Source: Candidatus Caldarchaeum sp.
GTDB taxonomy: Archaea > Thermoproteota > Nitrososphaeria_A > Caldarchaeales > Caldarchaeaceae
NCBI GenBank assembly: GCA_038844785.1
Contig: JAWBRA010000031.1
Coordinates: 1 to 16,749, forward strand
Length of the DNA: 16,749 nt
Reading direction: 5' to 3'
Position 1 is the stretch's first letter, and every line of letters begins with the position of its first letter. The notes beneath the pieces are model-generated. The model did no database searches and was not told the origin of the DNA. It worked only from the letters and a program-made list of their open reading frames with translations. Positions 611-16,749 of this stretch are shown here, in pieces. A program made the translations under genes and the position numbers.

Positions 611-653
611 CCAATAACCATGACTGGAAAGTCTGGCTTATGGCTCCCGTCTT

Positions 654-1326: not shown

Positions 1327-1340
1327 TTCACCACATATAA

Positions 1341-2120: not shown

Positions 2121-2144
2121 TGCTATTCCTCTGTGGTTCAAATG

Positions 2145-2160
2145 TTTTAAATCTTTTTTA
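2145..2160 (-). promoter_or_regulatory. BRE/TATA-like promoter for the nuclease-like gene
   Basis: Minus strand reads TAAAAAAGATTTAAAA, about 25 nt upstream of ATG 2120. Confidence 0.45.
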
Positions 2161-2196
2161 AACGTCGCCTTTGATATTGTCAAGTTAAGGGCGAGC

Positions 2197-2230
2197 CTAC
2201 TCCCTCAAATATGAATTTGGATAGGAGTAG
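2197..2230. repeat. Imperfect inverted repeat / hairpin
   Basis: CTACTCC (2197-2203) pairs with GGAGTAG (2224-2230); inner CAAAT (2206-2210) pairs with ATTTG (2215-2219) around a 4-nt loop. Confidence 0.5.
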
Positions 2231-2656
2231 ACCCGTTTGATTAGTGATAGAGATGTCTTTCCCAGCTGTAGGTTTCTTGTCAAGGCTTTATTCTGAGGTT
2301 TTCTGAGCTGTGGTATGTCGGCCATCGGAGTACGCCGAACAGTTCATCATAATTAAGCGAATTCCCATAGAAGGGTGAAATTCTGTAAACGCCTGCTGCC
2401 CACAACAAACATGGTGTCCATGGCTTCCACCAAGACTGCTGTTTTCTGATGTCTGAAGGAAGTTTCGCTGATGCGCGGAGGTTTTGGAAAAGACAAAGGC
2501 AGTAGGTCGCCAATATGCTGCGGTCAATAAGCTTCCTTTTTTCTATACCTTATTACTGTCAACACAAACCTAGCAGTCTTTTCCGTCTTTTGATAATGTG
2601 GTTCTAGGTTAGATGCGTTTTTTAACGTGTAGAAAGGACTTAGTTATGGTTTAAGA

Positions 2657-3103
2657 TTAGTCGAATGTTGTTATCTCGGTTATGGACCCGCCCTTCTCTA
2701 TGATTTCTGTATCGACTGTTAATAACTTGCATCCGATTCTTTTGGCTAGGTACATGTATGCTGCATCATATATCGTTAGCTTCGTTGACTCGGCTATTCT
2801 TAGTATCTCGCTTAGATCGTCCCAGTCGATGTTATCTACGATTAGGCCGATGGCGCCCATGGCTTGAAGAGCTTTTTCACCATCCTCCAAGCTCATTTTC
2901 CCAGCCCTTATCGCCTTATTTATAACGGAGGCTAGCTCGTACAGGATTAATGATGGGCCATGTGCCTCGACCCGTCTATAAGCTATATCTTCGGCCAGGG
3001 CTCTCGCATTTTTCTCCCATTTTTCTCCTGGGATAATCCATTTGGCCGCGACACTCGCATCTACGACGATCTTCAGCTTCTCTCTCTGTCCTCCCTTATC
3101 CAT
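2657..3103 (-). CDS. vapC: PIN-domain VapC toxin
   Basis: IVVDASVAAKW, LILYEL, TIYDAAY and LLTVD: all four acidic PIN residues present. Overlaps the antitoxin; exact start uncertain. Confidence 0.92.
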   Translation of the reverse strand: MDKGGQREKLKIVVDASVAAKWIIPGEKWEKNARALAEDIAYRRVEAHGPSLILYELASVINKAIRAGKMSLEDGEKALQAMGAIGLIVDNIDWDDLSEILRIAESTKLTIYDAAYMYLAKRIGCKLLTVDTEIIEKGGSITEITTFD

Positions 3104-3303
3104 TTAACCAGCTCCTCCGTCGGTATCTCCTGAACTCTCATCCGTATCTCATCTAGACTGTTAAGCGCCCTCTTACCCAGCTCGGTACCCAACTTGATTT
3201 GTATGACCTCCCTTAGATACTCACTCCAGTTAACGTCAACCATCCTCATGAGATCCCTCAGCTCTTTTGGGACTTTTATGGAGACGTTCACAAGCCTACC
3301 CAT
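3073..3303 (-). CDS. vapB: Antitoxin (archaeal 'VNWSE' RHH-type VapB)
   Basis: Probable ATG at 3303: MGRLVNVSIKVPKELRDLMRMVDVNWSEYLREVI...VKWIREDRERS. Upstream of and overlapping vapC; TATAAATA at 3346-3339. Confidence 0.88.
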   Translation of the reverse strand: MGRLVNVSIKVPKELRDLMRMVDVNWSEYLREVIQIKLGTELGKRALNSLDEIRMRVQEIPTEELVKWIREDRERS

Positions 3304-3365
3304 AGGGACCACCAATAGGTAATCTATTATGAGACTACTATTTATACTTAGGGCTCTGAAACGTT

Positions 3366-3941
3366 GGTACTGTCAACTTTTACTTTTCGGATAGGCCTAT
3401 GGCTTGAGATGTTCTCATCTGGTTATGCGTGTCAGAGTCCTCGTGGGAAGGCTTACGCTTCTCTTTTATTCTTGGCTGGCCTTAGGCTTAGGGATGTGTC
3501 TGAGAGGTATGGCTTCACAGATGCTTCTGGGGATGGTGTTAGGGGGTGGGTTCGTAGGCTGGGGAGAGCCTTCAACCCTATACGTAAGGCTGGTCGCGGT
3601 GGATGAGGCTGTCGAGAAGAGGCTTGGCGAAAGGGTCTATCTATGGTCAGCGGTAGACGTATACGCCTCTAAAGGCAGGCCCATTCTTAATGCCCTGGCG
3701 TTGCTGAGGATGCATGTGAGGGCATAGTCGTGGATAGGGGTCCATGGCATCCACTGGCATAGAATACTTCCACGAGACCTCTGGGAATAGGAACAAGACA
3801 GGACCAGAAGACTCCACAACAACACAAACTCCAAGACAGTAAAGAGTATAGAGGAGATAGCAGCAGCAATAGCCCTAATACATAACCTACTCCTCAGAAC
3901 CCAAACAAGAGAAGGAGGCGTAATACCTAGCTGACAGTACC
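3366..3941 (+). mobile_element. Internally deleted IS6-family element with both terminal inverted repeats (576 bp)
   Basis: Left end GGTACTGTCAACT (3366-3378); right end AGCTGACAGTACC (3929-3941, reverse complement GGTACTGTCAGCT), 12/13 match. No target-site duplication (GAAACGTT vs ATTAAAAT). Confidence 0.85.
3398..3934 (+). pseudogene. tnp: Frameshifted IS6-family DDE transposase
   Basis: Pieces in different frames: HTH 'LFLAGLRLRDVSERYG...VRGWVRRL', 'LVAVDEA...VYLWSAVDV', 'IVVDRGPW', 'GIEYFHETSGNRNK' and 'RTRRLHNNTNSKTVKSIEEIAAAIALIHNLL...GGVIPS*'. The TGA (3932-3934) lies inside the TIR. The catalytic Glu segment appears deleted; start position approximate. Confidence 0.85.
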
Positions 3942-4060
3942 ATTAAAATTGAGGCACCACGCCTTCAAATGATTATTCCTCAACATATCTACGGTATCAG
4001 TAGCCCCAAAAGAGATAACTTACCGCTACCCTACTATGGTTTTCGCTGTGCTTTGCCAGG

Positions 4061-4083
4061 AAGGAAAAGGGTAGCTTTAAAAA
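4061..4083 (+). promoter_or_regulatory. BRE + TATA box for the aldehyde dehydrogenase-DUF1185 unit (probably leaderless)
   Basis: Purine-rich AAGGAAAAGG followed by TTTAAAAA (4076-4083), about 22 nt before ATG 4105; no SD sequence. Confidence 0.6.
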
Positions 4084-4104
4084 CCCCCATCTGAGATTAA
4101 AAAC

Positions 4105-5547
4105 ATGAACGTTCTGCAAAACTTCATCGGCAACGAATTTGTCGCCTCAAAGTCTGTTGAGACGATTCCAGTGTATAATCCTGCTTTCGACTCGGTAATT
4201 TCAAAAGTACCCATAAGCATGGAGGATGAGGTGGACAGCGCTGTGGAGGCAGGTGTCAGGGCTTTTGAAAAATTCCGCAAAACAACACCGTCGGAAAGAG
4301 TTGAATATTTGCTGAAGATCAGGACTTTGATCGAACGGGATACAGATCTGATTGCACGTGTTCTCGTCGACAACCACGGCAGGACATACTCAGAAGCCGT
4401 AGGCGAAGTTAGACGAAGTCTAGAAAACGTGGAGGCTGCCGCTGCTCTGGCTTACACACTGGCGAAAGGCGAAAACATGACCAACGTTTCGCCTGATATA
4501 GATCAAGAACTTATCCGAGAGCCTCTAGGCTGTTTCGCCATCATCACGCCTTTCAACATCCCGCTACACGCATGGTCATCATACGTGCCTTACGCAATTG
4601 CTTTAGGTGCTACGGTGGTTCTGAAACCGAGCGAGGTAACGCCGATGGTGGTCAACGAGATAGCTAGGATTGTGAAGGAGGCAGGCGTTCCGCCCGGTGT
4701 TATGAATGTTGTTCACGGCGACGGCCGTGTAGCTGAGAAGCTAGTGCAACACCCAGACATTCAAGGGGTTGGGTTCATAGGGTCTACGAGGACAGGAAAA
4801 CTACTGTATGAAGCCGCCGCCAAGATGGGGAAACGTGCTTCGATCAACGCGGGGGCGAAGAACCACCTCGTCGTACTGCCTGACGCCAATATGGAGAAAA
4901 CGGCCGAAGCCGTTGTTTCGTCGTTCTTCGGAATGTCGGGGCAGAGATGCTTAGCCGGCTCCAACCTTGTTGTCGTCAAAAACGGGGAGAAGATCGTTGA
5001 GCTGGTCAAGTCAAGGTCTTGGCTCCGCCTAGGCTACGGCATGGACAAGGAAACCGAAATGGGCCCCATGGCTTCGAAAACAGGTTTGGAAAGAGTTATG
5101 AAATTCATTGAAAGCAGTGAAACGGTTGGGAAGCTTCTGGTGGACGGTAGGTTGAACAAGCCCGTCAAACCGTTGAAAGGCTATTTCGTCGGGCCCACGG
5201 TTTTCGAAAACGTTTTGCCGAACAGCACGTTGGCGAAGGAGGAGATTTTCGGCCCCGTAGCCTCAATAATTTATGCAGAAAACCTTGACGAGGCAATAGA
5301 TTTGATAAATAAAAACACGCCTTACGGCAACGCCGCAGCGATCTTCACATCAAACCCACGGAAGGCCCGTGAATTTGTTCTGAATGTTAACGTCGGTAAC
5401 GTCGGCGTCAACATAGGTGTACCACAGCCCATGGCTTATTTCCCGCTCGGCGGGAGAAGAATGTCTTTCTTCGGAGTAGCTCATAGCAGGGTTGATACCT
5501 TAAGATTCTTTACCGACCATAAGATCGTGACAACGAGGTGGTGGTGA
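4105..5547 (+). CDS. CoA-acylating (methyl)malonate-semialdehyde dehydrogenase family aldehyde dehydrogenase (ALDH6/MmsA-like)
   Basis: 480 aa. ITPFNIP, LKPSE, GFIGST, 'NAGAKNH' (lacks the ELGG glutamate, typical of CoA-acylating MMSDH), catalytic 'GQRCLAG', EEIFGPV, YGNAAAIFT, 'VGVNIGVPQPMAYFPLGG..SFFG'. Confidence 0.92.
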   Translation: MNVLQNFIGNEFVASKSVETIPVYNPAFDSVISKVPISMEDEVDSAVEAGVRAFEKFRKTTPSERVEYLLKIRTLIERDTDLIARVLVDNHGRTYSEAVGEVRRSLENVEAAAALAYTLAKGENMTNVSPDIDQELIREPLGCFAIITPFNIPLHAWSSYVPYAIALGATVVLKPSEVTPMVVNEIARIVKEAGVPPGVMNVVHGDGRVAEKLVQHPDIQGVGFIGSTRTGKLLYEAAAKMGKRASINAGAKNHLVVLPDANMEKTAEAVVSSFFGMSGQRCLAGSNLVVVKNGEKIVELVKSRSWLRLGYGMDKETEMGPMASKTGLERVMKFIESSETVGKLLVDGRLNKPVKPLKGYFVGPTVFENVLPNSTLAKEEIFGPVASIIYAENLDEAIDLINKNTPYGNAAAIFTSNPRKAREFVLNVNVGNVGVNIGVPQPMAYFPLGGRRMSFFGVAHSRVDTLRFFTDHKIVTTRWW

Positions 5548-6155
5548 AGTTGGAGGCGGCGCCTGGAGTTGTTATCCGTAAAGTCGTGGTCTTCGCCGAC
5601 GAAACGCTTATTGAAAACGGTAGACGTCTTGACAAACCTGTCAGGAAAAGCGTCGCAGCCGCCGTAATCAAGAATCCATACGCTGGAAGATATGTTGAAG
5701 ATCTTCAACTGTTGATTGACGCAGGAGATTTTCTCGGTGGTTTCCTAGGCAGGAAAGCTCGTGAAACACTCGGCATCCCGCCTGCAGCTGTTGAAAGCTA
5801 TGGAAAAGCAGCCATAGTAGGCGTAGCCGGCGAGCTTGAACACGGCCATGCAATTCTTCATCCAAAGTTCGGCAGAGGATTGCGTGAAGAATGCGGTGGC
5901 CAAGATGTATGCAAAGCCATAATTCCCTCGGCTGCGAAAGTCGGCGGGCCTGGAACACCGATAGACGTCCCGCTCCACTACAAGCGGGCGGCGTTTGTAA
6001 GAAGCCATTACGACGCGGTAGAAATAAGGGTTTCCGACGCCCCAATGGCAGATGAGATCGTGGTCATAGCGGCGGTGACCGATTCTGGAAGACCTTTGCC
6101 GAGAATCGGCGGCTTGAAGAAAGAGGAGGTCAGGGGGGAAGATGGGCTACGTTAA
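5538..6155 (+). CDS. DUF1185 / AA_synth ('amino acid synthesis') family protein
   Basis: 'IRK..V..DE...E.G', 'AAAVIKNPYAGRYVEDL', 'ESYGKAAIVG..GELEHGHA..HP', 'AIIPS..KVG..G..IDVPLHYK...FVRSHYD', 'DAP.ADEIVV.......GRP..RIGG'. Start overlaps the ALDH stop (GTG at 5538, 5541 or 5544). Confidence 0.9.
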   Translation: MVVKLEAAPGVVIRKVVVFADETLIENGRRLDKPVRKSVAAAVIKNPYAGRYVEDLQLLIDAGDFLGGFLGRKARETLGIPPAAVESYGKAAIVGVAGELEHGHAILHPKFGRGLREECGGQDVCKAIIPSAAKVGGPGTPIDVPLHYKRAAFVRSHYDAVEIRVSDAPMADEIVVIAAVTDSGRPLPRIGGLKKEEVRGEDGLR

Positions 6156-7111
6156 AATAACCATTTGACCAGTCTTCTTTTTACGAAATCGACTATTCCG
6201 TTTCGGAAAAACGCAAGAAGGAACAGAAGTGTCAAACCATAAAGGATCTGCGTTAGAGGTCCGAGAAATTTCAAGGTCTCGTTTACGATAGAGATTATGG
6301 CTGAGCCTATGTAAGGACCGAGTAGGGTGGTTCTTCCGCCGAGGATGACGATAAGCTGGACAGGAATATCGATTGATGAAAAAGCAAAATATGAGGGCGC
6401 GATGAGCTGGGAAAACAGCCCGTAAAGAGCGCCTGCCAACCCAAGAAGCGCTGATGAAAACAGGGCTGTTAGACTTTTTACCCTAGAAACGTTTATGCCG
6501 ACGAGTTCGGCGCTGTTTTCATCATCTATGATACAACGGTAAGCGTATCCTGTTTTTGTGTGGAAAAGCAGGTAGTAGGAAGCCATGGTAACTGTCAGCA
6601 CTAAGGCCGCGGCAAGATAGTAGAAACGGAGGTTGTATGGTAGCGCGTCAAGAGGGCCGAGGCTTATCCCACGTATTCTAAAACCTGTCTCACCGCCGGT
6701 TATGCCTGAAAGACCTATGACAAGGTTGTTGAAGACAAGCGTAATGGCTAGAGTGAATATTCCTGTGAAGATAACGACAAGCCTGCGGCGGATAGATAAG
6801 ACGCTGACAACCCATCCGACGAAGGCAACCGCCAGCATGGAAACCAGCATGGCTTCAACAGGCCCCATCAAACCTTCTCTGAGAGATATTCCCGTAATAT
6901 ACGCACCCATCCCTATGAAAGCTCCTATACACAGGAAAAGCTGCCGCGTAAACCCGAAAAGAAAGTTAAACCCATAGGCGAAAACCGTGAAGAAAACCAT
7001 CTGCACCAATATGAAAATGACGTAAGGTGTGTTGATGAATAGAAGCGGTAACACTGTGTAAATGAGTATTAGCACTATGACAGCATTAAGCCTTGTTCTT
7101 TCTCTCACCAT
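6152..7111 (-). CDS. livM: Branched-chain amino acid-type ABC transporter permease (LivM-like)
   Basis: Hydrophobic; 'ITGGETG', 'TGYAYRCIIDDENSAELVGIN', 'ILGGRTTLLGPYIG'. Confidence 0.9.
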   Translation of the reverse strand: MVRERTRLNAVIVLILIYTVLPLLFINTPYVIFILVQMVFFTVFAYGFNFLFGFTRQLFLCIGAFIGMGAYITGISLREGLMGPVEAMLVSMLAVAFVGWVVSVLSIRRRLVVIFTGIFTLAITLVFNNLVIGLSGITGGETGFRIRGISLGPLDALPYNLRFYYLAAALVLTVTMASYYLLFHTKTGYAYRCIIDDENSAELVGINVSRVKSLTALFSSALLGLAGALYGLFSQLIAPSYFAFSSIDIPVQLIVILGGRTTLLGPYIGSAIISIVNETLKFLGPLTQILYGLTLLFLLAFFRNGIVDFVKRRLVKWLF

Positions 7112-7977
7112 TTCTCACCCACGATGCCATAGGGACGAAACAGTATGATAGCCATGATAAGAATTAGAAGAGCTACGTAGGCGAGGTAAGTACCTATGAA
7201 GAGGACGAGAAAAGTATAGGCTATTCCTATGACGAGGCCGGCTATTATTGTTCCATACACGCTGCGAATCCCGCCCACTACGCAGACAAGTAATCCGAGG
7301 ATTGTGAACTCTATTCCGCTTTCCGGCGCAACCGTGGCTATGATGCTACGGATTATCCCAGCAAGGCCGACGAGAAGTGCTCCCAGCATGAAAACCAGCA
7401 GACGATACTTCTTGACGCCTACTCCAACCATCAACGCACCTGTTTCGTTCTGGGTGAGGGAACGTATCGCCATACCGCTCCATGTTTTTCTGAGGAAAAA
7501 GTAAACTGCAACTAGGATGGTTGCTGAACCTATGCCGGTTACCAGCTGAGCTAGCCGAACCGTCAACCCCATGAAGTTTATGGATGTTATGGGCAGGTTG
7601 ATTGTAAGGAATGCGAGGGGGAAAGTTGTTATGATAGAGCTGTGGAGGAAAATTGAGAACGCGAGCGTCATGTAAAGGCCTAGAAGAACTCTTTCCTCAC
7701 CTTCAAGCTTGTAAACAGGCTGCAGAACGATTTTGTCGAGAAAGGCAGCTGCAGCAACTGCAACAGCTAGACCAGCTACTAAAGCTAAAGGCAGTGGAAA
7801 ACCCAACGTCTGCATCAAGACAGCCGAGGTTACTGTGCATACAACCAACAACTCGCCGTGAGCAAGGTTAAGCACACCAGCCAGACCATATATCAAAGTC
7901 AAGCCAGAAGCGATAAGCGAAAGAATCAAGCCGAAAACCACTCCATCTAGAAGAAACAACAGCAAACCAGAATCCAT
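7105..7977 (-). CDS. livH: Branched-chain amino acid-type ABC transporter permease (LivH-like)
   Basis: 'LIASGLTLIYG..GVLNLAHGE', 'GMAIRS..QN..GALMVGV', 'VVGGI.S..GT', 'FRPYGI.GE'. Confidence 0.92.
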   Translation of the reverse strand: MDSGLLLFLLDGVVFGLILSLIASGLTLIYGLAGVLNLAHGELLVVCTVTSAVLMQTLGFPLPLALVAGLAVAVAAAAFLDKIVLQPVYKLEGEERVLLGLYMTLAFSIFLHSSIITTFPLAFLTINLPITSINFMGLTVRLAQLVTGIGSATILVAVYFFLRKTWSGMAIRSLTQNETGALMVGVGVKKYRLLVFMLGALLVGLAGIIRSIIATVAPESGIEFTILGLLVCVVGGIRSVYGTIIAGLVIGIAYTFLVLFIGTYLAYVALLILIMAIILFRPYGIVGEKW

Positions 7978-7979
7978 CG

Positions 7980-8699
7980 TTACATCCCCAAATATTTTCT
8001 TACGAAAGCCTGTTTCGACAACCCTTCACGTATATCGCCGTCAAACACTATACGGCCGTTCGTAATTATGTACCCTCTGTCGCAGAGTTCAGCCGCTTGA
8101 GCAGTCCGTTGCTCGACTAGAAGTATAGACAGATCTTTCTTGTTTTCCATTATTTTCCGCAAGCCTGTAAAAATGCTTTTGACAAGTAGCGGAGCCAGCC
8201 CTGTGGAAGGCTCGTCGAGAAGCAGAAGCTTTGCATCTGTCATCAAAGCTCTTCCGATGGCCAGCATTTGCTGTTCGCCACCGCTCATCGTCCCAGCTTT
8301 TTGAAACTCTCTTTCCCTGAGTTTGGGGAAGATGCTGTAGACAAGTTCGAGGTTTTCCAAGGCTTTCTTCCTCGCCCTTGCGTTGAAGGCCCCTAGCAGC
8401 AGGTTTTCCTTTACAGTCATCTGTGGGAAAAGTTCTTTTTCAGCGAGTGCGAGGGCCACGCCCTCTCCGACAACTTTCTCAGGAGGCATGCCGTCGATTC
8501 GTTTCCCATCGAAGACTATTGAACCTTTTTTAGGTTTTACCAAGCCCGCGATAGTTTTAAGAAGGGTTGTTTTGCCAGCACCGTTGGGACCTAAAACGGC
8601 GACCACTTCTCCACGGTCTATGTTTATTGAAACATCCCAGAGAATTTGAATGTCGCCGTATCCAGCTGCAAGGTTATCCACTTTTAGAAGGCTGGACAA
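7980..8699 (-). CDS. livF: ABC transporter ATP-binding subunit (LivF-like)
   Basis: Walker A GPNGAGKT, signature MSGGEQQMLAIGRAL, LLLLDEPSTGLAP, VEQ switch. Likely start is TTG 8699 (MSSLLKVDNL) with GGTGAG upstream; the ORF track starts at 8723. Confidence 0.93.
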   Translation of the reverse strand: MSSLLKVDNLAAGYGDIQILWDVSINIDRGEVVAVLGPNGAGKTTLLKTIAGLVKPKKGSIVFDGKRIDGMPPEKVVGEGVALALAEKELFPQMTVKENLLLGAFNARARKKALENLELVYSIFPKLREREFQKAGTMSGGEQQMLAIGRALMTDAKLLLLDEPSTGLAPLLVKSIFTGLRKIMENKKDLSILLVEQRTAQAAELCDRGYIITNGRIVFDGDIREGLSKQAFVRKYLGM

Positions 8700-9438
8700 T
8701 TCTCTCACCCAAGTATGCTTCAATTACTTCTTCGTCGGCGACTATTTCTTCAGGCTTTCCCTCAGCTATCTTCACGCCTTGGTTTAGGACCGATACCTTG
8801 TCGGCTAGTGATGATACTGCGCTGATCACGTGCTCAACCCAAACGATTGTAAGGTTGTAGGTTTTTCTCAGTTCTTTGAAGAGCTCTATGGCGTCTTCTA
8901 TTTCGGCGGTGTTGAGGCCGCTCATGTACTCATCCACCATCAAAACCTTTGGTTTAGATGCTAGGGCTCTTGCGAGCTCCACTTTTTTCCTCTCCTGAAG
9001 GTTCAAAACAGCTGCTTTAAGGTTAGCTTTACTTGACAATCCAAACCTGTCCAAGAGTGTTGAAACATGTTTTTCCAGCTCTTCCATCGACATACGGCCG
9101 CTAAACAGCCCACCAGCCAAGACATTTTCCCAAACCGTCAAATCCTTAAACGGTCTAGGGATCTGAAGAGTTCTTCCAATACCGAGCCTAAAAACCTCGT
9201 AGGCAGGTTTTCCAGTTATGTCAACACCGTCGAGCAGAATCTTGCCTGATGAAGGCTTGTAGACGCCGTTTATCACGTTAAACAGCGTTGTTTTACCTGC
9301 TCCGTTAGGGCCGATGACGGCTCTGATCTCACCATCCTCAACCTCGATGTTAACGTTTCTCAGAGCCGGTAATCCGCCGAAAAACTTCGTCACATCAATG
9401 CACTTTAATATTATCTTTCCCAAACCATTCTCAACCAT
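8674..9438 (-). CDS. livG: ABC transporter ATP-binding subunit (LivG-like)
   Basis: 'KFFGGL.AL', GPNGAGKTT, 'GIGRTLQ..RPF', 'KKVELARALA..PKVLMVDE..SGL', VEH, C-terminal 'VIEAYLG'. Confidence 0.93.
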   Translation of the reverse strand: MVENGLGKIILKCIDVTKFFGGLPALRNVNIEVEDGEIRAVIGPNGAGKTTLFNVINGVYKPSSGKILLDGVDITGKPAYEVFRLGIGRTLQIPRPFKDLTVWENVLAGGLFSGRMSMEELEKHVSTLLDRFGLSSKANLKAAVLNLQERKKVELARALASKPKVLMVDEYMSGLNTAEIEDAIELFKELRKTYNLTIVWVEHVISAVSSLADKVSVLNQGVKIAEGKPEEIVADEEVIEAYLGERIVQPSKSG

Positions 9439-9449
9439 CTTCTCGTCGG

Positions 9450-9468
9450 AAAAAAGAAAGATAAAAAG
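9450..9468 (-). terminator. Oligo-T tract downstream of the binding-protein gene (candidate partial intrinsic terminator)
   Basis: Minus strand after the TAA reads CATCTTTTTATCTTTCTTTTTTCC in the 33-nt livK-livG gap; archaeal intrinsic termination uses oligo-U. Confidence 0.5.
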
Positions 9469-9471
9469 ATG

Positions 9472-10686
9472 TTATTTAGGTGGAACGTATGGTTCAACCG
9501 GCGGCGATGTGTAAAGGGTTTCAAGCACCCAGTTTGCTCCCGGGTTAACTTGACCCGGGTCTCCTCTTTTAATCACAGCAAGCCGCATCGCCGGCTTCTT
9601 GATCTCGCCCCACTCGGTGTAGGACAACGGCCATGCGAATATGGGATGGTTGAATTCATGTGTGCGGATATGGTTGGCAACAACAGCGGGGTCTGTTGAC
9701 CTTGTTTTTTCGACGGCGTCCGCGATCAACATCACGGTGACGTATCCAGATACCGCGTTATGGTCGAAGTATTTACCGTATTTCTGGTAAAATTTCACCG
9801 CTAGGTCACGGTATTGAGGCGTTTCTATGTTCACGCATGTGGTTGTAACAAGCTTGTTGAGGCCTATATCTCCGACCCCTCTAAGCATGAGCTCAGGCGG
9901 CTGGACTGACGCTATGTAATAGGCTGATTGGAAACCGAGTTCTATGGCTTGCTTGGTGATGACGGGGAACCCAGGCGGATGGCCGGTCAGTATCATGATC
10001 TCTGGCTGGAGGGATTGAAGCTTCCGAAGAACAGTTGTGAAGTCGGTTTCACCCAGAGGTGCTTCCTCAATCTGGAACTGCACTCCCGGAATTTCCCTCA
10101 GCCTTTTCTCCAAAACCTCCTTGATGGCAAAACCCCATTCATAGCTGGCTATAACCACGCCGACTTTTTTATAGCCCTTGTCGCGGACAAAGTTGGCGAG
10201 AAGCTCGCCGTTAGTAGGAGCGGGCGGCAAACAGGTTCTAAACGTGTAGCGGGAATCCTTGGTTAAGATTGTGTGTGAGCCGGCTGCTATGAGGAAAAGC
10301 GGAACCTTCGCCTGCTCCGCTTCAGCCGTCAAAACGGCGCCTATTCCGCTCGAAATAGTCCCCACCACAGCGGTTACATGGTCAATCTCCGCCATCCTTT
10401 TAAATATCGCCACAGCCTCCTTCGCGTCGTTTTTTTCGTCAGCCTCGATGAGAACGAGCTTCGCCCCCAGAATGCCTCCTTTGGCGTTTATTTCGTCGAC
10501 AGCAAACCGCATACCATTAAGTGTGTAGTCACCGTAGATAGCGAAAGGGCCTGTCAAAGGAACAAGGGCCCCTATCTTCACTTCAGATACTTCAAGTCTT
10601 TGCTGTGAAAGAAACAGGAAGACACCAGATGCCGCGACAGCTACTATGACTACGGAAATAATAGCAACAAATACTGATTTTTTCAT
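9472..10686 (-). CDS. ABC transporter substrate-binding protein (LivK/LivJ-like, type 1 PBP), N-terminally anchored
   Basis: N-terminal hydrophobic helix; 'VKIGALVPLTGPFAIYG', 'AVDEINAKGGILG', 'AVVGTISS', 'YTFRT', 'TDFTT.L.KL'. Confidence 0.92.
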   Translation of the reverse strand: MKKSVFVAIISVVIVAVAASGVFLFLSQQRLEVSEVKIGALVPLTGPFAIYGDYTLNGMRFAVDEINAKGGILGAKLVLIEADEKNDAKEAVAIFKRMAEIDHVTAVVGTISSGIGAVLTAEAEQAKVPLFLIAAGSHTILTKDSRYTFRTCLPPAPTNGELLANFVRDKGYKKVGVVIASYEWGFAIKEVLEKRLREIPGVQFQIEEAPLGETDFTTVLRKLQSLQPEIMILTGHPPGFPVITKQAIELGFQSAYYIASVQPPELMLRGVGDIGLNKLVTTTCVNIETPQYRDLAVKFYQKYGKYFDHNAVSGYVTVMLIADAVEKTRSTDPAVVANHIRTHEFNHPIFAWPLSYTEWGEIKKPAMRLAVIKRGDPGQVNPGANWVLETLYTSPPVEPYVPPK

Positions 10687-10710
10687 GGTTTTTCTACCAT
10701 TAGTGGTTGC

Positions 10711-10724
10711 TTTTAAATTTTTGC
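10711..10724 (-). promoter_or_regulatory. Candidate internal TATA/BRE promoter for the transporter genes
   Basis: Minus strand GCAAAAATTTAAAA overlaps the LLM stop codon, about 25 nt upstream of the SBP ATG (10686); no SD sequence. Confidence 0.45.
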
Positions 10725-11705
10725 GTTGTAAATACGTGAATAAAGATCTTGCGTGATTCTAAGAAGCTGTGTCTTTTCAAACGTCACTGGGTTAAGAACT
10801 ATCCAGTCAACACCCTCAAGAGACATGATGCGTTTCTTAATTTTTTCCGCAACCTCGTCAACGGTGCCGTAGAGGTAATAGTTTTTCCAATACTCAAGAT
10901 TCATACCTGAGTATAGAGAGAAGCGTTTTACGGCTTCGTTGTCATCCTCCCCAGGACTACGGATGTAGACAAAGTTTGAATATATCTTTGTTATTCTATA
11001 GGGGTCGCGCCCCAGCTCCGCTGCATATTTCTTCAGTTTCTCCCAATCCTGCGCCGCCATCTCTGGCGTTACGCTTGAATGCGGAATCCATCCATCCGCA
11101 AACTTGGCTATGCGTAAAAGAACCTTGTCAACTCCCTTTGCAGCAGTGCCGTAAAGAATTTCGTGCGGCTGGCTTCCGCCGCCAATCCAGACGGGAGGAT
11201 GTGGTTTCTGGACTGGTTTAGGCTCAAGAACAAGATCTTTCACGTTAAAATATCTGCCCTCAAAAGTTGTTCTATATTCTGTCCAAAGCTTTTTGAGAAG
11301 AGCAAGGTATTCATCCATTATCGCGCCCCGTTTTTCCAGCGGGGTGTTGAGCAGTTTGAATTCGTCGACGTTCCAGCCCACACCCGCTCCAAGAACAAAT
11401 CTCCCGCCAGAATAAACGTCCAGAGACGCTGTCTGTTTTGCGACGAGATAGGGATTCCTAAGAGGTAGCACCATCACCATAGGGCCTACAACGGCGTTCT
11501 TTGTCGCTGCCGCGACGAAAGAGAGGGCAATTAACGGGTCGTGCCAGCTCGTTGAATACGCGGGCCGCGATGTAAGCAGATGGTCGATGACGAAGAATCC
11601 CTGAACACCGAGTTGTTCGGCCTCAGCGACGTAGTTTCTTAAGACCTCTCCCGATGAAAAATCACCAGGCCGTGTATATGTTGGAAGACGGAGACCGAGC
11701 TTCAT
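10713..11705 (-). CDS. Luciferase-like (LLM) oxidoreductase, probably F420-dependent (Rv2161c-like)
   Basis: 330 aa TIM-barrel motifs: 'FVIDHL', 'DPLIALSFVAAAT', 'LPLRNP..VAKQ.ASLD..SGGR..LGAGVGW...EF', 'PKPVQKPHPPVWIGG', 'ADGW'. 1-nt gap after the enamidase stop. Confidence 0.88.
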   Translation of the reverse strand: MKLGLRLPTYTRPGDFSSGEVLRNYVAEAEQLGVQGFFVIDHLLTSRPAYSTSWHDPLIALSFVAAATKNAVVGPMVMVLPLRNPYLVAKQTASLDVYSGGRFVLGAGVGWNVDEFKLLNTPLEKRGAIMDEYLALLKKLWTEYRTTFEGRYFNVKDLVLEPKPVQKPHPPVWIGGGSQPHEILYGTAAKGVDKVLLRIAKFADGWIPHSSVTPEMAAQDWEKLKKYAAELGRDPYRITKIYSNFVYIRSPGEDDNEAVKRFSLYSGMNLEYWKNYYLYGTVDEVAEKIKKRIMSLEGVDWIVLNPVTFEKTQLLRITQDLYSRIYNAKI

Positions 11706-11706
11706 T

Positions 11707-12891
11707 CTAATGACCTCCCTCGGGAATCCGAGCCGCTCCTTCGGTCTTTATCTGCCTCGTTGGAGGAGGTGTCATTCGACTGCGGCCTACACGTGGAATA
11801 CCGTCAACCATCACCATCGCGATGCCAGGAATGTCGCCGACTGAAAACGCTTCGAGAGCATCCTTGCCGACCGAGCCGTAGGGCGCATCAACGACTAAAA
11901 GGTCTGCAGGTCTCTCAGGTTCGAGAATGCCTTCATTCAGTCCAAAGGCTTTGGCTGTGTTGCCTGTCGCGGCGCAAACGACTTTCTCAGCCTCGACGCT
12001 GGTGTTGGATGCGATAAAGGAAATAGTCCTTATTATTCCTAAGGGAATAACACCGGTTCCTGAGGGGGCATCGTTTCCAATTATCAATCTGTTCAGCTGG
12101 TTACGTGACTGGAGTATTCTGACTGTTTCTATCATGGATTTGAAGTTACCACATTGGACAACTTCGATGGCTGAATCTGTGTCTTCGATTATTTTCCGGA
12201 TGTCTGTTAGGGATGGTGATGTGGGTCCTCCATTAATGTGTGACACGACGTTTGGCTTTACCTTCATGACTACTTCGGCGTTGATTATTGTACTGCCTGG
12301 TATTGAAGCTCCGCCTGTGTGGATTACTACTTTCATACCGTGTTTCTGGGCTATTCTCACTAAAGCAGCGGCTTCATCTGGGTCTTGAACGCTTCCAAGA
12401 CCAACTTCACCAACCAGCCAGACACCGGCCTTCACCACCTCTTCAAAATCAGCTTCAACCAACCCCTTCTCAAGTAACAAAGCACCGGCGTGAATCTTCG
12501 CCCCAAGAGGCCGGAGGTTTTTAAAGGTTTTGTGGGCTAAGATTGCAAGGGCCTTCGCTGCTTCCTTATCACCACGTGGCCTACCCGGCAGATGCACTTC
12601 ACCCGCTGAGATGAATGTCGTCACACCTCCGTTGACCGAAGATTCTATAAAGCCGAGAGTGTTTTGCCTTGGTGTGAAATCTCCGAAAACCGGGTGAACA
12701 TGGGAATCAAACAGTCCGGGAATCACCGTCATGTTGTTGACGTCAAAGACCCCGTCGGCTTGGCGTGAAATGTTCCAACCGATTTCCTCTATGACTCCAT
12801 TGCTGATGTATATGCTGTCGCCGCTGACTACAGGCTTGTCGATGTTTCCCGAAACTATTTTTCCAATGTTTTTAATCAGAATGGTTTTCAT
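11707..12891 (-). CDS. ena: Enamidase (amidohydrolase superfamily), homolog of Eubacterium barkeri Ena
   Basis: Colinear with Ena as recalled: 'IKNIGKIVSG', 'PGL.D.HVH...GD..PRQ', 'GGVTT.ISAG..H.PGRP', 'GVW.VGEVGLG', 'HTGG.SIPGS', 'VVSHINGGPT', 'E.VQCGN', 'GNDAPSGTG.IPLG', 'GDIPGI', 'SR.TPP'. The HxH, E, H, H, D binuclear metal ligands are all present. Confidence 0.88.
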   Translation of the reverse strand: MKTILIKNIGKIVSGNIDKPVVSGDSIYISNGVIEEIGWNISRQADGVFDVNNMTVIPGLFDSHVHPVFGDFTPRQNTLGFIESSVNGGVTTFISAGEVHLPGRPRGDKEAAKALAILAHKTFKNLRPLGAKIHAGALLLEKGLVEADFEEVVKAGVWLVGEVGLGSVQDPDEAAALVRIAQKHGMKVVIHTGGASIPGSTIINAEVVMKVKPNVVSHINGGPTSPSLTDIRKIIEDTDSAIEVVQCGNFKSMIETVRILQSRNQLNRLIIGNDAPSGTGVIPLGIIRTISFIASNTSVEAEKVVCAATGNTAKAFGLNEGILEPERPADLLVVDAPYGSVGKDALEAFSVGDIPGIAMVMVDGIPRVGRSRMTPPPTRQIKTEGAARIPEGGH

Positions 12892-12894
12892 TCG

Positions 12895-15234
12895 TCATCC
12901 ATTTGTTCTCAACTTATTTTTATTGTTTTTCATGCTTTCCCAAAGTTGTTGAGATGAGATGTGCGACCGGTTTATTCGGATTTTTAAAGCATCCTCAACA
13001 GCATTGGCTATTGCAGCTGCAACAGGTATCAACGGACCTTCACCCATACCTTTAGACCCAAGTTCAGAAAACAAAGACGGAGTCTCCAGATGGTCGACTA
13101 AAATCTCCGGGGTCTCAACAGATGTGGGCAAAAGATAATCGACGAAAGACGATGTCAAAATCTGTCCATTCACATCGTAAACAATTCTTTCATAAAGGGT
13201 TGCGCCAATCCCCTGCACTATCCCGCCCACTATTTGGCCGTCGACGATTTGTTTGTTCAAGATTTTGCCGCAGTCATGGACTGCGACGTACCGTAGTATT
13301 GTCGGTTTGAATGTTTCGGGATCAATTTGCACTATTGCGATATGCGTGGAGATACCGTAAGTGGCTGACATGTTGATTTCGCCTGCAACACCTGTGTTGA
13401 ATGTTGGGAAGTCAAAGAAATGTTCAGCCTGAAGTGAGGTGTGGTTACGTGTTTTGACGTTGTCGCGGTATGCTTTTGCGGCAAGCTGTTCTAACGAGAT
13501 GGAGGAGTCCGACCCTTTTACATAAATTGTTCCGCCGCGGATTTCCAGATCGTTTGCAGAGGTTTCGAGAAGTTCGGAAGCTATTGATAGGATACTGCGT
13601 TTTAGTTTCTCGGCGGCTTTTTTCACAGCAGCCGTCGTCATCACGCTGAACCTACTTGCCCAAGTTCCTCCGTAGGGGCTTGGGTAAACTACGTCGGAAT
13701 CGCCGAAAACAATTTTAACATGCTCAGGCTTTACGTTCAGGGTTTCGCAGACTATTTGTGTGAGGACGGTTTCATGGCCTTGACCCTGTGGAATCGATGC
13801 CGCGTAAACAGTTATGGTTCCCGATTCTTCGAGGCGAACTATCGCTCCTTCCCCTGAGCCAGACGTTTCAAGATGGGGGAAGAGAAGTTTGTTCCGTGCA
13901 AGGTTCGTTACCGCAGGTTCTACAACACACGCTATTCCTATCCCCACGTTTTGTTTACCCGCGAATTTTTCGGGCTCGGCAAGTTTCCACGCTCTTTCTA
14001 ACACTGCTTTATAGTCACCGCCATCATACAAACTGCCGAAAACTGTTCGGTACGGCTGTTGACTTTTGTCGACCATGTTTCGGAAACGGATTTCAAGAGG
14101 AGATAATCCGACCTGCTTCGCCACAATATCCATCATTCTTTCCAAGACAAAGTATGCCTGCTGACATCCATAGCCACGGACAGGGCCCGTAGGACATTTG
14201 TTAGTAAATACCACTTTCAACTCGACGTCAACATTACGAATGTCGTAGCAGCCGAGATAAGTCATCAACGAACGCACCACCCCTCCTGGGTCTGGAAGAC
14301 GAGCGTAGGCCCCCACATCCTCAATGAACCTCGTCCTGTACGCAGTAATTTTCCCATCACGTTTAACCGCCATTTCAGCATGAGCTATTCGGTTAGAGTT
14401 ATGAGCCATGGCTGCAATATGTTCTGAACGTGTTTCGAACCATTTCACGGGTAGTCCAGTATGCATGGCTGCGAAAGCTACAAGAAAGACAATCGGATAG
14501 AGCATTATTTTGACGCCGAAACCTCCACCGATGTCTCGTTGAATCAGCCTGATTCGCTCCGGCTTAATTCCGAGAGAGCGTGCGACAATACTACGAAACA
14601 GAAGAGGAGTTTGCTGATTATCGTATATGTTCAGCTTCCCATCCTTCTCCGGTTTTACTACTACCCCACATGTTTCAATTGGACATGCTGCATACCGTTC
14701 GAAAATGAATTTTTCAGAAACAATTTCATCAGCTTCGTCAAACATCTTTTCAACATCGCCAAACTTGAAACGTTGGCTTACGGCGATGTTTGTCCCAAGG
14801 TTTTCATGTATAAATGTGGACGAGCTAAGCGATTCTTCTGGGTCTACAACAGGGGGGAGAGGCTCGTAATCGACGTATACTTTTTCGGCAGCGTCCAAGG
14901 CATCTTCCAACGATTTAGCGAGCACCATGGCTACGGGCTCGCCGTAGAACCTAACTTTATCAACCGCTATCCCATAGTAAGCAACATCTTTGATGAGTGT
15001 ATAGAGAGGCTTTGTCTTAAAAGCTATAGTTTTTCCGTCAAAAACAGCGTCGGCGGTTTTTAAGGCTTCGGAAAAATCGGTTGAGAGAATTCGTGCGTGA
15101 GGGTAGGGACTTCTTACAAAAACCAAGTGAAGCATCTTTGGGAAAGAAATGTCGTCGACATATACCGCCTGACCGCGTAGAAATCTTGGATCCTCGACTC
15201 TTCTGCTTAATTTCAACCTTTTTAAGGTTTCCAA
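12895..15234 (-). CDS. Xanthine dehydrogenase/CoxL-family molybdopterin-binding large subunit (heteroaromatic hydroxylase; HmfA-like motifs)
   Basis: 779 aa, TTG start. 'RRVEDPRFL.G...YVDD', 'VRSPYPHARI', 'IGGGFGVK', active-site loop 'GPVRGYG', 'QGQGHET', 'ASR', 'DCG..LN...VDGQI.GG..QG.G', and 'KGMGEG' with the catalytic Glu. Confidence 0.93.
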   Translation of the reverse strand: METLKRLKLSRRVEDPRFLRGQAVYVDDISFPKMLHLVFVRSPYPHARILSTDFSEALKTADAVFDGKTIAFKTKPLYTLIKDVAYYGIAVDKVRFYGEPVAMVLAKSLEDALDAAEKVYVDYEPLPPVVDPEESLSSSTFIHENLGTNIAVSQRFKFGDVEKMFDEADEIVSEKFIFERYAACPIETCGVVVKPEKDGKLNIYDNQQTPLLFRSIVARSLGIKPERIRLIQRDIGGGFGVKIMLYPIVFLVAFAAMHTGLPVKWFETRSEHIAAMAHNSNRIAHAEMAVKRDGKITAYRTRFIEDVGAYARLPDPGGVVRSLMTYLGCYDIRNVDVELKVVFTNKCPTGPVRGYGCQQAYFVLERMMDIVAKQVGLSPLEIRFRNMVDKSQQPYRTVFGSLYDGGDYKAVLERAWKLAEPEKFAGKQNVGIGIACVVEPAVTNLARNKLLFPHLETSGSGEGAIVRLEESGTITVYAASIPQGQGHETVLTQIVCETLNVKPEHVKIVFGDSDVVYPSPYGGTWASRFSVMTTAAVKKAAEKLKRSILSIASELLETSANDLEIRGGTIYVKGSDSSISLEQLAAKAYRDNVKTRNHTSLQAEHFFDFPTFNTGVAGEINMSATYGISTHIAIVQIDPETFKPTILRYVAVHDCGKILNKQIVDGQIVGGIVQGIGATLYERIVYDVNGQILTSSFVDYLLPTSVETPEILVDHLETPSLFSELGSKGMGEGPLIPVAAAIANAVEDALKIRINRSHISSQQLWESMKNNKNKLRTNG

Positions 15235-15243
15235 GCGAATTTT

Positions 15244-15492
15244 TTACCCTTTCCAACACGAGTCGTGGGAGACGTTGTTACCTGTTATCATAGCCTGTGT
15301 CACCTCAACCATTGTGGCAGCCAACACACGAAGACCTGTAGCATTCTCATCAACCTGTAGCGTCTAGCCCAGTCAAGCACACATTCAATAGCAGAGCCTG
15401 AAGCGGGAGCTCTCCCCCTCAACGCAGTGGATAACACCACAATCCACAAAAACAACCTCAACAACCCTCGACTCACCCACATAGCTCTTCAT
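15244..15492 (-). pseudogene. Probable degraded PIN/VapC gene remnant
   Basis: ATG 15492 overlaps the preceding TGA (ATGA coupling) and reads MKSYVGESRVVEVVFVDCGVIHCVEG. Later frames give 'WARRYRL' and 'VLAATM...ITGN', reminiscent of PIN N- and C-terminal motifs with the middle deleted. Confidence 0.4.
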
Positions 15493-15916
15493 AACTCAGA
15501 CATCTGAGACAAGACCACCTCCTCGAGGTTGGAAAGGGTGAGCCGGCGATCGGACGGCCAATAAGGTTTGGGGTTGAATTTACGAAGCCGCTCAAACTTC
15601 TCTTGCTCTGAGCCCAGCTCTTGCCACAGCCTGAGCTTGGCGAACGATGCAATGCATACAGACCTTGGGTTTACTCCAAGCCTTTTGAGCTCATATGAAA
15701 GCTGTTCCAATCTTTCTACCTCAGCAACCAGCTTCTCACCTTTGTAAGCTCGATATGTTTGAGATGAGGGGGATGCTCTAAACGGTCCAAAAGCTACTTA
15801 AGATCTTCCTCAACAGGTCTTGAAAGAGCACCTCTTCTAGACCCATAACGCTCCTTGACCACCCGACGAAGCCTCTTGAGCGTCTCCTAGGAGAGGGAGA
15901 CGGTCAGCTTAACCAC
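15489..15916 (-). pseudogene. Degraded RHH-type antitoxin-like gene(s)
   Basis: From GTG 15916: MVKLTVSLS*ETLKRLRRVVKERYGSRRGALSRPVEEDLK*LLDRLE, with TAG at 15889-15887 and 15796-15794. A frameshift near the run at 15768-15772 leads into 'TYRAYKGEKLVAEVERLEQLSYELKRLGVNPRSV', which runs on to TGA 15489. Shares the 'R(F/Y)G..(K/R)GALS' motif with 1039-1326. Confidence 0.65.
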
Positions 15917-15983
15917 GGTGTGCTAATACGTAAACAAATTCATCCCTAGTTGTTGATGCTTTTCCCTCACACTGCCGGCTGTA

Positions 15984-16340
15984 TTATCCGTTTTCCAACC
16001 TTATTTCCAAGCCAAGGCCATCCAATTTTTTGAACTCCTTGTCTGAAGTAGCCAGCGTCAGGTTTTTTGCTTTAGCGGATGCTGCTATAAGCAGGTCGGC
16101 TTCTGGAACTTTCAAACCCCGGCCCCTTAAAGCATCGTATATGTCGCAGTACTCCATTATGACCTCGTTGTCCAACGGTATGATTTCGTATACCTTTTCT
16201 AGACTTGTTTTCACTTGATTACGTTTCTCCGCCGCTACTCCTCTCAAAACCTCTACCAACGTAATGACGCTGATACATCCTTCTATAAGCTTGCCTTTCT
16301 GCAGCGATTTTATCAGAATGCTCGTATCTAACAACATCAT
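15984..16340 (-). CDS. vapC: PIN-domain VapC toxin
   Basis: MLLDTSILI, SVITLVEV, PEADLLIAASA, LATSDKEF; ATGA overlap with the antitoxin. Confidence 0.93.
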   Translation of the reverse strand: MMLLDTSILIKSLQKGKLIEGCISVITLVEVLRGVAAEKRNQVKTSLEKVYEIIPLDNEVIMEYCDIYDALRGRGLKVPEADLLIAASAKAKNLTLATSDKEFKKLDGLGLEIRLENG

Positions 16341-16564
16341 CGCAACGTGAACTCCTTTCTGAAAGCCTTAGACTCCTCGAGTATTCTTTCAAGCTCTTCT
16401 TTAGACAAGGTTTTCCTGAGCCTTTCGAACGCCTCCAGCTTTCGCCTTCTTCTAGCTTCCGAATACAGCTGTAGCAGGTATTCTCCCCAATCGCTGTCTC
16501 CCTTGTTTCTTTTAAGGATTTCCTTTACTCGCTTCGGAACAGAAATAGTTGAATAATTATTCAA
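16337..16564 (-). CDS. vapB: Antitoxin (archaeal VapB, 'YSTISVP..VK..L..KGD..W' type)
   Basis: 75 aa, TTG start with GGTGA RBS; TTATAT at 16603-16598; translationally coupled to vapC. Confidence 0.88.
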   Translation of the reverse strand: MNNYSTISVPKRVKEILKRNKGDSDWGEYLLQLYSEARRRRKLEAFERLRKTLSKEELERILEESKAFRKEFTLR

Positions 16565-16623
16565 TTATGTCACCAATAACTACATTGCACTGGCTTGATA
16601 TAAGCGTTATGCTTACCCACAAG

Positions 16624-16749
16624 GGCTCTGTTAACTTAAGCCATCTTCATCACCCCTTTTATGCTGTTTATCAGGTGTAGCGTCTCTGGCTGGGTGATTA
16701 TGTGGATTAGGTTCAGCCATTTCCATACATGCTCTAGAATGCATGGTTT
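16624..16749 (-). mobile_element. Right end of a second IS6-family element (continues beyond window)
   Basis: Terminus GGCTCTGTTAACTT (16624-16637) matches the 3366 end GGTACTGTCAACTT at 11/14 and resembles IS6 GGC(A/T)CTGTT ends. A minus-strand ORF stops inside it. Confidence 0.7.
16636..16749 (-). CDS. tnp: C-terminal 37 aa of a probable IS6 transposase (partial)
   Basis: Open frame KPCILEHVWKWLNLIHIITQPETLHLINSIKGVMKMA* with TAA at 16638-16636 inside the TIR; 'C.LEHV..WLNL' resembles archaeal IS6 transposase C-termini. Confidence 0.6.
   Translation of the reverse strand, partial: KPCILEHVWKWLNLIHIITQPETLHLINSIKGVMKMA

Follow-up and report, generated by a model that had tools for sequence, protein, structure and literature searches.

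A luciferase-like oxidoreductase encoded beside enamidase in Candidatus Caldarchaeum as a candidate F420H2-dependent replacement for 6-hydroxynicotinate reductase

Which enzyme reduces the pyridine ring when an enamidase gene lies in a cluster that lacks 6-hydroxynicotinate reductase (Hnr)? This question is raised by a 16,749-nucleotide stretch of DNA from Candidatus Caldarchaeum sp. (NCBI GenBank assembly GCA_038844785.1, contig JAWBRA010000031.1, positions 1 to 16,749 of the forward strand), which we call the window. Enamidase (Ena) requires a substrate with a reduced ring, and Hnr is a ferredoxin-dependent Fe-S flavoprotein. A first-pass annotation of the window had claimed that it holds neither a gene for such a protein nor one for a flavin reductase, and that the only reductase candidate is a luciferase-like oxidoreductase (LLM) encoded 1 nt after the ena stop codon. 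These claims held up: Pfam and NCBIfam scans of the window open reading frames (ORFs) of at least 80 aa revealed no Fe-S, flavoprotein, or flavin-reductase domain, Hnr searches of the contig were empty, and the ena/LLM junction reads TAG-A-ATG. By gene content, the LLM is the sole oxidoreductase of its module besides a molybdenum (Mo) hydroxylase and an aldehyde dehydrogenase (ALDH). We lean, with moderate confidence, towards the annotation's proposal that this LLM is an F420H2-dependent 6-hydroxynicotinate reductase that has displaced Hnr. The family assignment of the protein, the absence of Hnr, and the mutual exclusion of the two genes support the proposal; the F420 pathway of the host, being incomplete, does so only in part.

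The LLM gene (positions 10713 to 11705, minus strand) is an intact ORF of 330 aa with an ATG start. GGGAGGT stands just 5' of the ATG, and the alignment with 31 homologues begins at the first residue of the protein. The protein matches PF00296 (Bac_luciferase) at an E value of 9.5e-48 and passes the NCBIfam model TIGR03619 for F420-type LLMs (201 bits; cut-off, 166.9), as do the Ena-linked LLMs of three other loci (193.8 bits in L055, 193.8 in L131, and 201.3 in L093). The next-best NCBIfam matches are TIGR03560, TIGR03571, TIGR03854, and TIGR03621, and four of the top five families are annotated as F420 dependent. Models of FMN-type families all scored below their cut-offs: 35.9 bits against 498.3 for RutA, 52.9 against 518.2 for SsuD, and 70.6 against 383 for SfnG. 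The choice between TIGR03619 and RutA, which the first-pass annotation had left to such models, thus falls to TIGR03619. Comparisons at the level of fold are less discriminating. The AF2 model is a TIM barrel (pLDDT 88.8, pTM 0.90), and Foldseek puts the FMN enzymes (luciferases, SfnG, RutA) and the F420 enzymes (Mer, FGD, Adf) in the same TM-score range of 0.71 to 0.80. Searching the PDB by sequence or by profile likewise mixes the two cofactor classes among the matches, and the ESM Atlas matches are generic LLM clusters only. The available portions of PMC8518648 and PMC6279831 give no motif diagnostic for F420 versus FMN in LLMs.

Within this large family, the window LLM has close relatives that share its genomic setting. 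In the LLM tree, 30 Ena-linked LLMs and a distant LLM from another ena locus (L110; 33% identical) lie on one side of a 97* branch, with eight paralogues not beside ena, from the same genome and from the related genome G009, on the other. In a search of 5.8 billion proteins, 107 of the 120 best homologues share 70% identity or more with an LLM found beside ena. On the strength of this branch and these homologues, the LLM belongs to a dedicated, enamidase-associated subfamily. Residues conserved specifically in the clade are R6, Y50, W54, H169, Q179, Y185, R198, H209-S211, D220, W221, Y242-F245, S266-M268, Y272, W273, and Y277; the first 182 residues of the window LLM contain no cysteine. Clade members come from Caldarchaeales and from uncultured bacteria recorded as Methylomirabilota, Acidobacteria, Rokubacteria, Chloroflexi, and Alphaproteobacteria. 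The plasmid collection yielded no near orthologue (best identity, 30 to 35%).

Hnr has no Pfam or NCBIfam model, and it was therefore sought at the protein level. In the genome that contains the window (1.74 Mb, 95.5% complete), two plasmid Hnr proteins gave no tblastn match at E ≤ 1e-3, an HMM built from two plasmid Hnr homologues gave a best E value of 0.089, and UPF0280 had no match. The count of Hnr homologues was likewise zero across all five genomes searched, namely this one and four relatives, two of which are 99% complete in one and four contigs. As a positive control, the plasmid Hnr queries detected homologues of 40 to 46% identity in 30 metagenome loci. A canonical hnr elsewhere in the genome had been named as an outcome that would overturn the proposal, and these searches returned none.

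We then asked how the two genes are distributed beside ena in general. An alignment of nine diverse enamidases retrieved the best 80 metagenome ena loci (49 to 83% identity), which were scored by tblastn with the window proteins and the plasmid proteins; an LLM was counted at 40% or greater identity to that of the window. Hnr occurs in 30 of these loci, LLM in 21, both in none, and neither in 29, of which 25 have less than 3 kb of sequence downstream of ena. Restricting the count to the 45 loci in which 3 kb or more follows ena gives 24, 17, 0, and 4. The predicted mutual exclusion of hnr and this LLM clade beside ena was thus observed without exception. In a tree of 95 enamidases, all loci with a known reductase are LLM-type in the archaeal group and Hnr-type in a clade of 44 rows, and the two proteobacterial plasmid Hnr-type enamidases are nested inside a bacterial LLM-type clade. 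This pattern reflects a few swaps followed by stable inheritance. The plasmid ena loci examined are either Hnr-type (Comamonadaceae, Sulfitobacter) or carry neither reductase.

The LLM lies in a module of ten genes, listed here with coordinates in the window and strand:

12895 to 15234, minus: Mo-hydroxylase large subunit of the xanthine dehydrogenase/CoxL family (PF02738, PF20256, PF01315), the presumed nicotinate 6-hydroxylase
11707 to 12891, minus: enamidase homologue of 394 aa (2vun, E 2.2e-124), predicted to open the tetrahydro-6-oxonicotinate (THON) ring
10713 to 11705, minus: luciferase-like (LLM/LLHT) oxidoreductase (PF00296, TIGR03619), the putative 6-hydroxynicotinate reductase
9472 to 10686, minus: LivK-type periplasmic substrate-binding protein of an ABC importer (PF13458), syntenic in Caldarchaeales loci
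8674 to 9438, minus: LivG-like ABC ATPase (PF00005, PF12399), syntenic
7980 to 8723, minus: LivF-like ABC ATPase (PF00005; best NCBIfam match, NF008626), syntenic
7105 to 7977, minus: ABC permease (PF02653), syntenic
6152 to 7111, minus: ABC permease (PF02653), syntenic
5538 to 6155, plus: PF06684/DUF1185 ("amino acid synthesis") protein (PF06684, E 3.4e-70; PDB 2qtp, E 6.3e-65)
4105 to 5547, plus: ALDH of the methylmalonate-semialdehyde-dehydrogenase type (PF00171), presumed to oxidise 2-formylglutarate, syntenic in Caldarchaeales loci

The minus strand thus runs from the Mo large subunit through enamidase, LLM, and the LivK-type protein to the two ATPases and two permeases, and the ALDH and PF06684 genes are divergent. 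The ALDH scores 430.6 bits against TIGR01722, just below the cut-off of 448.5. The enamidase aligns with the solved Eubacterium barkeri enamidase 2vun over residues 3 to 382, and a match of this strength and extent justifies the name ena. Its residues H64, H66, E98, H100, H191, H218, and D274, which include an HxH motif and which we take to be metal ligands, are invariant in nine diverse homologues. An enamidase is found at E ≤ 1e-40 in 16 of 76 Caldarchaeales genomes. Mo large subunit, enamidase, and LLM genes are contiguous in 9/9 related loci and in all 15 assessable Caldarchaeales loci, the sixteenth being cut by a contig end inside ena. ALDH is present in all seven of the nine related loci that reach its side. 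Genes outside the module vary between genomes (e.g., ribosomal proteins, primase, Suf genes, P-type ATPase). This constancy within differing surroundings indicates that the ten genes form a unit. Promoter and terminator scans gave no excess of sites over shuffled sequence. Three PIN/VapC-type toxin genes flank the module (654 to 1058, 2657 to 3315, and 15984 to 16564), two of them with a small ORF upstream in the antitoxin position.

In the metagenome loci, the two reductase types differ in the genes that accompany them:

UPF0280: 25/30 Hnr-type loci, 0/21 LLM-type loci
PF06684: 24/30 Hnr-type loci, 19/21 LLM-type loci
ALDH: 10/30 Hnr-type loci, 0/21 LLM-type loci
Three-component-type Mo enzyme (Sulfitobacter-like): 19/30 Hnr-type loci, 1/21 LLM-type loci (L131)
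Lone Mo subunit like that of the window: 0/30 Hnr-type loci, 13/21 LLM-type loci

The PF06684 gene is shared by both types (e.g., L026:6424-7688, L093:11176-11745) and, as a near-constant companion of enamidase, present in 55 of the 80 loci; the window protein shares 60.6% identity with a betaproteobacterial one, encoded by the second PF06684 gene of a Comamonadaceae plasmid nicotinate cluster. According to excerpts of PMC2954203, PF06684 takes its name solely from its position near Liv-type ABC genes, and its fold is like that of Bacillus chorismate mutase. A role in the THON pathway is probable for the protein; the enamine or 2-formylglutarate as its target is a guess. UPF0280 (NF003322; e.g., L026:7701-8630) keeps company with Hnr only, which suggests that it may be an accessory or maturation factor of Hnr. 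The ALDH homologues of Hnr-type loci are 39 to 45% identical to their query, and the LivK-type binding-protein gene recurs in 7/21 LLM-type loci. By Pfam annotation, L093, L107, and L088 read binding protein, permease, ATPases, Ena, PF06684, LLM, and Mo large subunit, followed by unrelated genes. The hybrid locus L131 reads PF06684, Ena, and LLM, and continues with an FAD subunit and a 2Fe-2S/Mo fusion that shares 52% identity with the enzyme of the Sulfitobacter plasmid; it is a cluster of the Hnr type with nothing but its reductase exchanged. None of these four loci contains a flavin reductase gene.

Among solved chains, the Mo subunit is closest to CoxL (8uem), 6-hydroxypseudooxynicotine dehydrogenase (7dqx), and quinoline 2-oxidoreductase (1t3q), and it scores only 166 bits against E. 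barkeri Ndh (3hrd). No 2Fe-2S or FAD subunit gene is adjacent; the genome as a whole, by tblastn, contains about 12 Mo large-subunit genes and about four each for 2Fe-2S and FAD subunits (contigs C1, C3, C6, C7, C15, C17, C19, C30, and C52). Of the 21 LLM-type metagenome loci, 14 extend far enough to reveal a Mo gene, and in 13 of these a homologue (33 to 36% identity) follows the LLM. The seven LLM-type loci without a Mo gene stop within 1.7 kb past the LLM, and no small or medium Mo-enzyme subunit is found near the bacterial LLM-type loci. A highly improbable idea is that the lone Mo subunit and the LLM form a closed redox pair, in which the two electrons from nicotinate hydroxylation would pass straight to F420 and return as hydride to 6-hydroxynicotinate. 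Nicotinate and water would then give THON with zero net electron input and without Fe-S or FAD subunits, and the idea would explain why a partnerless Mo subunit follows the LLM in these loci and occurs in no Hnr-type locus.

Can the host supply F420? The first-pass annotation had proposed to look for its biosynthesis genes, and the outcome is divided: CofC, CofD (337.8 bits), CofE, and the F420:NADPH oxidoreductase Fno (167.9 bits against a cut-off of 149.8) are all above cut-off in the host genome, and the Fo synthase genes CofG and CofH were not found, CofG giving no match and CofH noise only. CofD is present in 44 of the 76 Caldarchaeales genomes and in 15 of the 16 that carry ena. By hand count, the 44 CofD-positive genomes average about 8.9 PF00296 matches, against about 1.6 for the 32 that are CofD-negative, a difference that is descriptive only, as the genomes are kin. 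L055, from a distinct lineage, has an Fno gene in convergent orientation directly downstream of Ena and LLM (L055:2871-3513, minus strand). The gene is broken into two ORFs that overlap in different frames (TIGR01915, 90.6 and 64.7 bits), through either a frameshift or an assembly error. In two related genomes, CofC and CofD genes lie about 3.8 kb upstream of the module Mo gene (L019, 2409-3853, and L020, 2436-3880, minus strand), a nearness that may be coincidence. Fo synthase is absent from the genus, so Fo, the deazaflavin head group, would have to come from outside. The lineage seems to depend on external Fo or on an unknown Fo route; we infer uptake by Caldarchaeum. Loss of Fo from cells by diffusion is described in the available text of PMC8498797.

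How would the module work? The substrate, cofactor, and reaction direction given here for the LLM are proposals built on the observed gene content, synteny, family membership, and Hnr/LLM exclusion. The Liv-type ABC system would import nicotinate or 6-hydroxynicotinate, and the Mo-hydroxylase large subunit, joined by Fe-S and FAD subunits from genes elsewhere in the genome, would produce 6-hydroxynicotinate. In its pyridone form, 6-hydroxynicotinate is an alpha,beta-unsaturated lactam, and hydride at C4 with protonation at C5 gives THON, the enamide that enamidase hydrolyses. With F420H2 as the donor, the LLM would accordingly add hydride at C4 of the 6-pyridone, and a proton would go to C5, yielding 1,4,5,6-tetrahydro-6-oxonicotinate. 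Enamidase would convert THON to 2-formylglutarate and ammonia, and ALDH, perhaps with the PF06684 protein, would carry the carbon towards glutarate or glutaryl-CoA. Fno would regenerate F420H2 from NADPH, and the cell would acquire the deazaflavin head group from its surroundings. Luciferase-like enzymes that reduce picrate and 2,3-didehydroalanine with F420H2 are reported in excerpts of PMC8498797, and the F420 potential of -340 mV given in those of PMC6279831 is similar to that of NAD(P)H. The Hnr clusters of the Comamonadaceae and Sulfitobacter plasmids include a ferredoxin-NADP reductase, which weakly suggests that NADPH-level donors suffice for Hnr there; the suggestion is weak because the 30 Hnr-type loci of the metagenome census yielded no such reductase.

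Several observations weigh against an F420H2-dependent Hnr replacement. Besides the missing Fo synthase in the host, CofG turned up in only one of 31 relatives, and the 12 further genomes of the genus yielded none, although some of the genomes searched are 99% complete; four CofD-negative relatives keep three to six LLMs. The F420 assignment itself comes from the TIGR03619 family HMM, a family itself defined by phylogenetic profiling; the PDB and fold comparisons do not separate F420 from FMN. The exclusion of Hnr by LLM is exceptionless, but Fisher's test on the 45 longer loci (p = 5e-9) greatly overstates its independence, since the reductase label needs only two changes on the enamidase tree and independent events are therefore few. 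Reductase type also co-varies with Mo-enzyme type and ALDH presence, so the swap is not cleanly one gene for one gene. The window Mo subunit is not orthologous to known nicotinate dehydrogenases and is 27% identical to the Sulfitobacter enzyme. Finally, ena/PF06684 loci with neither reductase exist on plasmids (Thermomicrobium, Mariluticola, Mesorhizobium, Prescottella, Haloarcula) and among the metagenome loci, where four that extend 3 kb or more downstream of ena lack both. The Thermomicrobium locus reads Mo large subunit, PF06684, and Ena with dioxygenase and enoyl-CoA hydratase genes, and those of Mariluticola and Mesorhizobium have an FAD-dependent monooxygenase or oxidoreductase. The enamidases of three plasmid records of this third kind (L025, L139, and L024) sit on long branches and may act on other substrates.

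These points leave room for other readings of the LLM. The chemistry might be the same, a hydride reduction before hydrolytic opening, with the substrate being a pyridine or pyridone carboxylate other than nicotinate. The Mo subunit invites this reading, as it groups with CoxL, quinoline oxidoreductase, and 6-hydroxypseudooxynicotine dehydrogenase rather than with the Ndh type and is unlike the Mo enzyme of Hnr-type clusters; the Liv-type importer is uninformative about its ligand, and sets of LLM, amidohydrolase, and Mo-hydroxylase genes with other amidohydrolases occur elsewhere in these genomes. We nevertheless consider it unlikely, given an enamidase that so closely matches the characterised THON hydrolase and is about equally similar to those of LLM-type (51 to 58% identity) and Hnr-type (52 to 57%) loci, the nesting of two proteobacterial plasmid Hnr-type enamidases in the LLM-type clade, and the pairing in L131 of an LLM with a proteobacterial-type Mo enzyme. 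It is decidedly unlikely that the LLM instead catalyses another redox step, such as an F420-linked oxidation or reduction of 2-formylglutarate like that of Hgd or ALDH, with the ring reduced by an unlinked enzyme. All LLM-type clusters would then be left without a ring reductase, though enamidase needs a reduced ring. The characterised F420-dependent LLMs described in excerpts of PMC8518648 and PMC8498797 do include alcohol and sugar-phosphate dehydrogenases, and ALDH is missing from the LLM-type metagenome loci while present in a third of the Hnr-type ones. That exclusion, however, has exceptions, because the Caldarchaeales modules hold LLM and ALDH together in every locus long enough to show both, whereas Hnr and LLM share none of the 80 loci.

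The LLM might also be an FMN-dependent two-component monooxygenase of the RutA/SsuD kind, which would attack the pyridone with oxygen and hand the enamidase a different substrate. The top structural and sequence neighbours of the LLM in the PDB include luciferases, SfnG, and RutA. The lack of Fo synthase fits such an enzyme, as do the FAD-dependent monooxygenases or oxidoreductases in the third class of ena/PF06684 loci. We judge it very unlikely, since the protein falls far short of the RutA and SfnG cut-offs while passing TIGR03619, four of its five best families are F420 dependent, no flavin reductase is encoded in the window or in the four annotated LLM-type loci, and an Fno gene stands beside the LLM in L055. 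The narrower alternative raised in the first-pass annotation, a RutA/PyrA-type monooxygenase, fails on the same HMM scores and the missing partner flavin reductase, and a RutA-type identity is rejected.

Related gene sets occur elsewhere in these genomes. A second operon of the host genome (L135, G000:C7:12000-26000; 6607-12608, plus strand) reads LLM, amidohydrolase, FAD subunit, 2Fe-2S subunit, and Mo subunit, with genes for adenine deaminase, a Bmp-type ABC importer, and a carbamoyltransferase as neighbours (3332-6514 and 12639-13658). It may be a purine-type breakdown cluster with the same hydroxylate-reduce-hydrolyse logic. Six relatives carry a second enamidase paralogue (40 to 42% identical), with no LLM within 1.5 kb. 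In G009 (L052, G009:C1:360000-379900), this paralogue is found with ECF/ABC transporter genes, a UbiD-type decarboxylase gene, and an LLM gene, 1.5 kb from a set of Mo subunit, amidohydrolase, LLM, and amidohydrolase; two LLMs, the Mo subunit, two other amidohydrolases, and the UbiD gene all lie within 7 kb of it.

If the LLM is indeed an F420H2-dependent 6-hydroxynicotinate reductase, its activity, the dearomatisation of a pyridone by a deazaflavin-dependent luciferase-like protein, would be new. Nicotinate breakdown would then have two unrelated ways of carrying out its key reductive step, and F420 would gain a concrete physiological role where none is established. The available portions of PMC8498797 report no experimental work on F420 roles in bacteria outside Actinobacteria and describe F420 in the Nitrososphaera lineage of TACK archaea as lacking biochemical confirmation. 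A full-text literature search that excluded most subscription journals found no account linking F420 or a luciferase-like enzyme to enamidase or THON-type nicotinate breakdown. The LLM-type cluster is not rare, making up 21 of the best 80 metagenomic enamidase loci, and the claim is directly checkable with one purified protein.

Like Hnr (EC 1.3.7.1), the LLM would convert 6-hydroxynicotinate to THON and is encoded beside ena; unlike Hnr, it is a TIM barrel of unrelated sequence that would transfer hydride rather than single electrons via Fe-S clusters. To our knowledge, no characterised F420H2-dependent luciferase-like hydride transferase (LLHT) acts on a pyridone or in nicotinate catabolism. 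The window LLM shares with such enzymes (Mer, the picrate reductase Npd/Fht, the didehydroalanine reductase LxmJ, and the LmbY type, as covered in excerpts of PMC8498797 and PMC8518648) the PF00296 fold, an F420-annotated NCBIfam family, and, as proposed, hydride addition to an electron-poor C=C bond or ring; its clade differs in being tied to enamidase. A parallel is the Old-Yellow-Enzyme alkene reductase HxnT, which, as described in the available text of PMC9304392, saturates trihydroxypyridine in the nicotinate pathway of Aspergillus nidulans. Like the proposed enzyme, HxnT transfers hydride by flavin-type chemistry and leaves a hydroxylated pyridine partly saturated ahead of hydrolytic opening, but it is eukaryotic, has the Old-Yellow-Enzyme fold, uses FMN and NAD(P)H, and acts on 2,3,6-trihydroxypyridine.

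The closest comparison is with THON-type nicotinate clusters (Ndh, Hnr, Ena), which excerpts of PMC3511419 and PMC9304392 place in E. barkeri and in Azorhizobium and other proteobacteria, the proteobacterial version being the one described in PMC3511419. The Comamonadaceae plasmid carries a Mo enzyme, a 2Fe-2S protein, a Liv-type ABC system, two PF06684 proteins, UPF0280, a protein annotated "6-hydroxynicotinate reductase", ferredoxin-NADP reductase, and enamidase, and the Sulfitobacter plasmid has the same gene set. The window shares the Mo hydroxylase and enamidase with THON-type clusters and the Liv-type importer and conserved PF06684 protein with the proteobacterial version, and the expected order of the chemistry, hydroxylate, reduce, hydrolyse, is the same. 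In place of Hnr, UPF0280, and ferredoxin-NADP reductase it has the LLM, and its Mo enzyme is a lone large subunit of a different clade. The window would be a THON-type cluster only if the LLM supplies the reductase step, and the evidence from gene content points to such a variant of the known nicotinate pathway in a hot-spring archaeon and in many uncultured bacteria.

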